A stretch of DNA of 6,364 nucleotides from a virus (lineage: Duplodnaviria > Heunggongvirae > Uroviricota > Caudoviricetes): IMG/VR virus record IMGVR_UViG_2537561713_000009; one strand, 5' to 3'. Positions 529 through 714 of the stretch are shown piece after piece. Position 1 is the first letter of the stretch. Every line of letters begins with the position of its first letter. The translations under genes were made by a program, and so were the position numbers. A model generated the notes under the pieces. That model saw nothing but the letters and a program-made list of their open reading frames with translations. It was not told the DNA's origin and did not search any database.

Positions 529-714
529 ATGCCAAACAAACCATGCCCTGCCTGTAACGCTCTTTCTGGCTTTTTAGAGAAGGGCGGTTATTACATTTTT
601 AACTGTCCAGAACATGTTGAATTTCATATATCAAAACTTGACAGTATCATTACAAAGCCAAATCAGTATCAGTCTGATTTACTGAATAAAGAGTTAAACG
701 CCGCCCGAGATTAA
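529..714 (+). CDS. Hypothetical small Cys-Cys-Cys-His protein (61 aa), possible zinc ribbon; no family recognised
   Basis: ATG at 529 preceded by GGAGG (519..523) with 5-nt spacing; the track ORF 457..714 is probably an upstream over-extension. Motif C-P-A-C (res 6-9) then 16 residues then C-P-E-H (res 26-29). Convergent with the minus-strand left operon. Confidence 0.4.
   Translation: MPNKPCPACNALSGFLEKGGYYIFNCPEHVEFHISKLDSIITKPNQYQSDLLNKELNAARD

Follow-up and report, generated by a model that had tools for sequence, protein, structure and literature searches.

Our analysis identifies the small open reading frame (ORF) at positions 529-714 of the viral record IMGVR_UViG_2537561713_000009 as a genuine protein-coding gene, belonging to a very small gene family of enterobacterial prophages, with an ancestral product of 80-91 amino acids (aa). 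Alignment of its alleles shows that the copy studied here is a derived, damaged form of the 80-aa protein, truncated at 61 residues, and its distribution among genomes shows that it is inherited as a unit with one particular C-terminal domain of the convergent gene that it faces. From this arrangement and its likeness to known systems, we consider it about an even call that the small protein is expressed in the lysogen as a cognate binder or inhibitor of that variable domain, the pair being in decay in this prophage. The window, by which we mean the whole stretch of 6,364 nucleotides (nt) that was analysed, matches, at 100% identity, the early region of an E. coli O157:H7 lambdoid prophage, known as Sp4 in strain Sakai and with an equivalent in EDL933 (Sp4 / CP-933M type).

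The ORF lies on the plus strand, between DicF, a small RNA (sRNA), and a minus-strand gene at 901-1290; it starts 336 nt from DicF and reads away from it. It is thus opposite to the leftward early operon, as the initial annotation of this DNA had stated, and the ATG, the GGAGG and the C-P-A-C ... C-P-E-H pattern described there can be read directly in the sequence and the ORF list.

529-714, plus strand: the focal small ORF, 61 codons and a stop (ATG 529-531, TAA 712-714).
519-523, plus strand: the Shine-Dalgarno (SD) sequence GGAGG, 5 nt before the ATG at 529.

The product, MPNKPCPACNALSGFLEKGGYYIFNCPEHVEFHISKLDSIITKPNQYQSDLLNKELNAARD, carries CPAC at residues 6-9 and CPEH at residues 26-29. 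An alternative start in the same frame, ATG 517, would yield a form of 65 aa; it lacks an SD and overlaps the SD of the 529 start. The protein is labelled 'hypothetical protein' by PGAP (WP_001133046.1), and the locus is ECs1061 / NP_309088.1 in Sakai and EDL933_RS06115 in EDL933. It matches PHROG 10133 (unknown function) with an E value of 7e-48, and in PHROGs the small proteins and their partners matched only families of unknown function. Neither the focal protein nor its partner has a significant family in Pfam or NCBIfam, and PADLOC defence-system models gave no match for either. In the literature we found no papers on ECs1061, ECs1063 or ybl81, and the paper on dicBF regulation contains nothing on antisense transcription at this locus.

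The family is very small. Among 5.8 billion proteins it forms five clusters at 90% identity, and an exhaustive phmmer search of 1.84 billion representatives added one true distant relative, P0034, a 91-aa form that is 48% identical and occupies the same syntenic position (loci L006-L009). Two long repetitive proteins that also matched in phmmer, P0032 and P0033, were rejected as relatives; their scores were summed weak repeats. The members come from E. coli or Salmonella records, or from sequencing-run and metagenome assemblies with the same lambdoid early-region gene order. The gene is present in 411 of the 5426 complete E. coli genomes: 386 have a copy at least 99% identical to the focal ORF and about 25 a diverged one, ~77% identical in the aligned part and 70% over the ORF. 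Intermediate alleles (L013-L018) were obtained from draft assemblies and sequencing-run contigs, and in O157 genomes the body of the focal ORF is single-copy. A tblastn search of 50,697 phage genomes returned only spurious matches (E at least 0.2), the gene being in no isolated phage record; the GTDB species representatives hold no copy, and scans of IMG/VR and metagenomes gave nothing beyond the two known lineages.

The gene has been kept as a protein. Diverged copies (70-92% nt identity) retain the start, the frame and all four Cys/His residues, and C6, C9, C26 and H29 are invariant throughout the family, down to 48% identity. Outside the window lineage the frame is open for 80 codons in every E. 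coli/Salmonella copy, and the block AATGGAGGATAAAATG does not vary among the E. coli/Salmonella-type loci, including those with the type B cassettes described below. We applied a Nei-Gojobori codon test over codons 1-61, with Fisher p values. In the focal frame, the more diverged allele pairs gave dN/dS of 0.06-0.26 (p from 1e-4 to 1e-9); comparing the window with the diverged copies, the other two sense frames gave 0.7-1.25 and the antisense frames, which contain stops, 0.46-1.15. Ka/Ks across related prophages, proposed in the initial annotation as a check, therefore reveals purifying selection, for a gene whose Ka/Ks was 'not determined' in the published table (PMC5597208). Of the two options offered there, the genuine small protein is borne out by the conserved frame, start, SD and Cys/His residues, by the frame-specific dN/dS and by plus-strand expression.

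This expression is recorded in published strand-specific RNA-seq and Ribo-seq from uninduced cultures of strain Sakai (PMC5597208 S2 Table), where both the plus-strand transcript and the translation signal are found. In lysogeny broth (LB), ECs1061 has 12.2 reads per kilobase per million (RPKM) for RNA and 68.2 RPKM for ribosome footprints, with a ribosome coverage value (RCV) of 5.58 and coverage of 0.51 (PMC5597208). The corresponding values are 33.8 RPKM, 30.8 RPKM, 1.04 and 0.69 in brain heart infusion (BHI), and 9.6 RPKM, 0.7 RPKM, 0.07 and 0.10 under BHI stress (PMC5597208). In LB and BHI the gene passes the translation criteria of Hücker et al. 2017, and it is one of the 'translated short annotated genes' that served them as controls (PMC5597208). 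In their S4 Table the SD is placed 4 bp upstream, with a dG of -6.3; BPROM predicts a promoter at 122 bp upstream, and no terminator is listed (PMC5597208). Low levels of transcript and of ribosome occupancy persist for the window copy in uninduced lysogens, and we regard the Sakai data as supportive rather than strong. Note that two manually chosen promoter candidates, GTAGCA-17-TTTAAT in the window and GTGACA-17-TTTAAC in L003, were discarded, being not conserved in all lineages. The EDL933 transcription start site (TSS) study also lists a plus-strand TSS at window position 1153 (NZ_CP008957.1 1254075), antisense inside the N-terminal part of the partner, in all eight conditions; a further one, at about 1295, appears in most of them. 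Being downstream of the small ORF, the two are unrelated to its expression.

By itself, the length of the ORF is within chance expectation. An ATG ORF of at least 61 codons occurs in 36% of shuffles of the 708-nt DicF-to-partner spacer (0.4% with GGAGG 5-12 nt upstream as well), and the six frames of the window contain 15 of them. These figures, the lack of a Pfam or NCBIfam family and the low footprint counts are what could be said for a chance ORF with spurious ribosome footprints, the second option of the initial annotation. The ORF is more than chance because it is conserved in its homologues: the low dN/dS is confined to this frame, the SD and start are kept, and the 48%-identical homologue in the same syntenic position retains the four ligand residues. 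The cross-lineage codon analysis effectively refutes the chance ORF, to which we leave next to no probability. We also considered the plus-strand ORF at 195/222-527 and rejected it: L004 has a broken frame and L003 a truncated one, which makes a coding function improbable. This ORF of 102-110 codons runs antisense through the DicF leader and ends 1 nt before the focal ATG; it was a coding sequence, EDL933_RS06110, in an older PGAP release, and in one strain it is joined in frame to the small ORF, giving annotations of 135-189 aa.

The window copy is a damaged allele, and it lies beside a damaged partner. The features concerned are as follows.

715-771, plus strand: in-frame remnant of the ancestral C-terminus found by allele alignment, 18 codons (GRSGPLKILQRPTIVELD) and the ancestral stop TAA at 769-771.
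755-1290, minus strand: the frameshifted partner gene at the ydfC position, from tblastn in two frames and alignment with the intact P0043-45.
901-1290, minus strand: the annotated 129-aa ORF of this ydfC-position gene.
1021-1027, minus strand: A7 homopolymer, site of the -1 frameshift in the partner; intact alleles have A8.

All other E. coli/Salmonella alleles encode 80 residues. At codon 62 the window has TAA, whereas the intact alleles have TCA (Ser), a change of C to A at ORF position 185. Exactly 3 nt distinguish the window ORF from the nearest intact allele, L016, and none is synonymous: the changes are S16L, G30V and S62stop, and both S16 and G30 are invariant in all other E. coli/Salmonella alleles. 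Loss of the frame in close homologues had been named in the initial annotation as evidence that would count against the gene; what we found is a premature stop in the window copy itself relative to its homologues, in a family that is nonetheless constrained.

A different reading of the same allele is that the 61-aa form is a functional shortened variant, which keeps the core and the helix, loses only the tail that overlaps the partner, and is maintained in Shiga toxin-producing E. coli (STEC). Up to residue 61 the helix is indeed retained, as is the whole CPxC...CPxH core, the allele is present at 99% identity or more in 386 complete genomes of several STEC serotypes, and ribosome occupancy persists. 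However, all three differences from L016 alter the protein, two of them at otherwise invariant residues and with no synonymous change beside them, and the partner is frameshifted in the same lineage; the high copy number, moreover, reflects heavy sampling of one clonal prophage. We find a functional short form possible but doubtful, and prefer to read the window copy as a damaged allele.

Intact relatives of the partner are 179-186 aa long. In the window, the C-terminal half of the partner continues in the -1 frame at 755-1020, beyond the end of the 129-aa ORF, so the description of this region as an untranslated spacer does not hold for that part: it is the out-of-frame C-terminal half of a gene. 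The intact genes overlap at their 3' ends, by 20 nt in L013-L018, 44 nt in L002-L004 and 119 nt in L006. The A7 frameshift is present in 13/13 loci with the 61-aa allele, and the partner is intact in 20/20 loci with the 80-aa allele. Three protein forms diverge exactly at the A-run, namely 179 aa (P0043, intact), 129 aa (window) and 105 aa (P0048), and the length of the run seems polymorphic. Read in the zero frame, the sequence there is A AAA AAA, the shape of a classic slippery heptamer. The variation could reflect simple decay, phase-variation-like slippage or programmed frameshifting; because intact alleles have A8 and the window A7, a 1-nt deletion is the simpler reading compared with programmed -1 frameshifting.

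Our results also indicated that the small ORF is not the isolated ORF in a spacer that it had been taken for. Together with the ydfC-position gene it makes up a convergent two-gene cassette.

544-1141: the swappable two-gene cassette; homology to the type B locus is absent here and present at 216-543 and 1142-1624.

As judged from these homology limits, the segment is a swappable unit comprising codons 6 to the end of the small ORF and codons ~51 to the end of the partner, with exchange breakpoints at 543/544 and 1141/1142, both inside the genes and not between them. The small ORF and the DNA of the partner C-terminal domain have the same count in the 5426 E. coli genomes, 411 genomes and 413 places, and the same split into identity groups, 386/1/24; the N-terminal part of the partner, by comparison, has 1460 occurrences in 909 genomes. 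The L006-L009 partner is 135 aa long and consists of the C-terminal domain alone, still facing the homologous small ORF. The type B partner has another C-terminal domain (208-212-aa 'Ybl81' forms, PHROG 2151), and in the same place and orientation as the type A ORF lies a 69-aa, Cys-free ORF (PHROG 4274) for which purifying selection is seen in no frame but its own. The small ORFs of types A and B begin alike, with a common upstream block, SD and ATG and the same first five codons (MPNK/RP), and are otherwise unrelated. Each member of the type B pair is found in 597 genomes at 80% coverage or more. Two or more cassette types thus occupy the dicB-type early operon, in roughly 400 and 600 of the 5426 complete genomes.

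Other features were seen around these loci. In the type B loci L036 and L040, an extra convergent pair lies between the cassette and dicB (3376-3639, minus strand, and 3214-3435, plus strand), an 87-aa DUF1883 protein overlapping, on the opposite strand, a 73-aa ORF. In L006 the two-gene unit is bracketed by a 45-nt direct repeat (4918-4962 and 5648-5692, 91% identical, 730 nt apart), the first copy of which contains a possible extended -10 promoter (TTCACC-16 nt-TGgTATCCT) ~35 nt before the small ORF.

The role that we propose for the small protein would work as follows. In the lysogen, where the leftward early promoter is kept repressed, it would be expressed from the plus strand; the partner would be made only once that promoter fires on induction. 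The small protein would then bind the variable C-terminal domain of the partner, most simply as an inhibitor or immunity-like factor. In this prophage, loss of the partner C-domain may have relaxed the constraint on the small gene, and the two may have decayed jointly. One nonsense and two non-conservative changes beside a lost partner domain fit joint decay; they are too few to prove it.

Several observations weigh against this proposal. The strict co-occurrence of the small ORF and the partner domain could come simply from two genes adjoining or overlapping each other inside a single mosaic block. A single clonal prophage lineage probably accounts for the 13 damaged loci, and their coupled damage therefore counts as one historical event, not 13. 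A pattern of 3 nonsynonymous and 0 synonymous changes has ~p=0.05 under family-typical selection and ~p=0.5 under neutrality, making it a weak sign of relaxed constraint. The Ribo-seq signal consists of few reads covering about half of the ORF. A consensus scan upstream of 529 found no convincing sigma-70 promoter and one for a terminator found only a weak hairpin at 762-777; in the EDL933 Cappable-seq tables none of the plus-strand TSS listed adjoins the ORF, the upstream ones among them lying about 750 nt away, inside dicB (PMC10469882). The AlphaFold2 (AF2) model of the partner is unusable (pLDDT 49.5), family searches found no known toxin or immunity domain in the partner or the small protein, and for the small protein Pfam zinc-ribbon matches stay below gathering scores (E 0.022-0.44), with best E values of 0.24 in a phmmer search of the PDB, 0.9 in Foldseek against the PDB and 0.06 against BFVD.

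Adjacency also leaves room for an independent moron, that is, an accessory gene expressed in the lysogen (for superinfection exclusion, anti-defence or small-scale regulation) and merely co-inherited with its neighbour, since adjacency alone can explain identical genome counts. The region is AT-rich (37.6% GC versus 48% for the window), K-12 Qin lacks the gene, uninduced lysogens express it, and it lies on the strand opposite to the early operon. On these grounds the moron status suggested in the initial annotation is plausible, though the consensus scan gave no promoter and only a weak terminator hairpin for it. Against an independent gene, the breakpoints fall within both genes and not between them, a second, unrelated small ORF is equally tied to a second partner C-domain, the distant L006 lineage drops the partner N-domain yet keeps the pair, and in the window lineage both genes are damaged together. 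We therefore judge mere co-inheritance unlikely and retain the cognate binder of the partner C-domain as our proposal.

The CPxC and CPxH knuckles of the small protein lie 16 residues apart, with ligands invariant in the whole family. The AF2 model predicts two N-terminal beta-hairpin knuckles and then a helix, with strands 3-5/12-18 and 21-26/30-35 flanking the motifs; note that the model, with a mean pLDDT of 72, was built from only 5 sequences. Metal binding and a zinc-ribbon fold are suggested by the motif and the model. The zinc-ribbon-like arrangement pointed out in the initial annotation is thus suggested by the ligand spacing and a moderate AF2 model, and not by any family or fold match reaching significance.

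The convergent layout could also matter at the level of RNA, with plus-strand transcription damping the partner and DicF/dicB by collision or antisense pairing and the reading frame being secondary. The 3' overlap of 20-119 nt in the intact forms, the detected plus-strand transcript and the leftward transcription that crosses the region on its way to DicF and dicB all agree with this. The codon evidence argues strongly against it: in the plus-strand frame substitutions fall mostly on synonymous sites and leave the Cys/His residues unaltered, which indicates selection on the protein. In addition, expression is low (12-34 RPKM), the consensus scan gave no promoter, and DicF is undetectable in most of the homologous loci scanned. 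A role of this kind is very improbable in our view, and the cognate-binder proposal, which needs the protein, remains the preferred one.

The leader and DicF, to which the initial annotation had tied the small ORF, contain the following features.

141-192, minus strand: the DicF sRNA (Rfam, 76.9 bits), here as context and not as a conserved companion of the small ORF.
442-447 / 460-465: the inverted repeat GCCGGA/TCCGGC, in the DicF leader common to K-12 Qin.
472-492: a small hairpin, CCACACG / CGTGTTGG, found by alignment, with loop TGACAG or CTGTCA.
493-523, plus strand: a candidate SD-sequestering hairpin from the minimum free energy (MFE) structure, TCTCCATT (493-500) pairing with AATGGAGG (516-523), with one U.G wobble.

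DicF was not detected at the Rfam threshold in 5/6 of the small-ORF loci scanned (L002, L004, L006, L007 and L010), and the tie to the small ORF is not upheld. In L002 and L004, the position of DicF is held by a variant with the terminator hairpin and without the 5' seed region, sub-threshold in Rfam and possibly a different sRNA. The usual account of DicF is that it is processed from the transcript of the dicB operon. In the EDL933 Cappable-seq data a minus-strand TSS was recorded in one condition at window position 193 (NZ_CP008957.1 1253115), exactly at the DicF 5' end. The GCCGGA/TCCGGC repeat is present as first reported, at a position slightly different from the 'roughly 433..460' given for it. 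The stem-loop ACACG-TGACAG-CGTGT of the small hairpin occurs as its exact reverse complement (ACACG-CTGTCA-CGTGT) in L016-L018, L028, L034 and L036, a variation that looks like hairpin inversion. In the candidate SD hairpin, the stems do not vary and the loop, of 14-16 nt, does; L006 (4955-5006) has a different SD, AGAAGG, with a matching upstream CCUUUCU. GUGUU at 486-490 is able to pair with AAUGC across the start codon, and the pairings in the region 486-534 would, if formed in the plus-strand leader, hide both the SD and the AUG. The hairpin is the MFE structure in every lineage, L006 included, with z-scores of -0.8 to +0.3, no better than shuffles, and SD sequestration is a prediction that is not statistically supported.

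The remaining features of the early region, all on the minus strand, are listed from the repressor towards the partner.

2371-2772, minus strand: cI-like repressor.
1865-2343, minus strand: RelE/RelB pair.
Between the RelE/RelB pair and the ydfC-position gene in the listed order, minus strand: ydfA- and ydfB-like genes.

dicB and an exonuclease gene lie to the left, beyond the end of the window. Inverted repeats of the AACAGTTTTTTATTGT type, recurring at 1769-1818 and about 2808-2840, bracket the block formed by the repressor and the toxin-antitoxin pair, and presumably are the left and right operators of the cI-like repressor.

More broadly, the early-left region of DicB-type prophages may have a slot for interchangeable effector C-domains and interchangeable convergent inhibitors, with a shared leader, SD, ATG and first five codons. 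Such a module would be polymorphic and internal to the phage; the effector would have a constant N-terminus of ~50 residues, the leader would possibly sequester the SD, the inhibitor would be made in the lysogen and the effector on induction, and the Cys-Cys-Cys-His protein would inhibit one effector type. We offer this wider reading tentatively and think it unlikely to hold. If the pairing is functional, it would be a new polymorphic module of prophage biology next to DicF/DicB and would give a handle on the 'ydfC-position' proteins. The gene call itself adds little, ECs1061 having been annotated since the Sakai genome and included in the published translatome table. What is new is the damaged window allele, the coupled partner frameshift, the domain-specific co-occurrence and the second cassette type, and the cassette architecture is the one mildly novel outcome. 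Since the STEC copy is damaged and lies beside a frameshifted partner, functional work on this gene would be better served by the intact 80-aa/179-aa pair than by the O157:H7/STEC copy.

Finally, we compared the locus with known systems. The ydfC-dicF spacer of K-12 Qin has DicF, the ~280-nt upstream leader and the GCCGGA/TCCGGC hairpin in common with the window; unlike the window, it contains an unrelated 72-aa ydfC and no small convergent ORF, the homology ending at ~470. As occurs in the zinc-ribbon small proteins (Zn_ribbon_TFIIB PF13453 and the HVO_2753-like PF07754), the small protein has two knuckles, each placed by the AF2 model in a predicted beta-strand turn; it differs from them in its fourth ligand, a His, in an extra C-terminal helix and, in the intact forms, in a tail of 19-30 residues. 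Phage morons offer another likeness, for instance sieB in Rac, which we take to be an example of a moron or lysogen-expressed accessory gene set against the early operon. The small gene resembles them in being AT-rich, located in the early-left region on the opposite strand, variably present among related prophages and on in the uninduced lysogen. In contrast to classic morons, it is tied to a specific domain of its neighbour and has no demonstrated promoter or terminator of its own.

The closest parallels concern gene arrangement. Polymorphic toxins carry variable C-terminus/immunity cassettes, and in the operons of pore-forming colicins the immunity genes are convergent and separately expressed. 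As in the former, the conserved N-terminal part of the partner is joined to one or another of several C-terminal domains, and each of these is strictly tied to a small neighbouring ORF of its own; as in the latter, the small gene is convergent and expressed when the promoter of the large gene is repressed. We do not claim membership in the toxin/immunity or colicin families: the partner has no secretion signal and no toxin or immunity domain match. Unlike polymorphic toxins, it is a ~180-210-aa, cytoplasmic-looking early phage protein. A further difference is that the alternative small genes have a common leader and their first five codons in common, and the boundary of the swap therefore lies inside the small gene.

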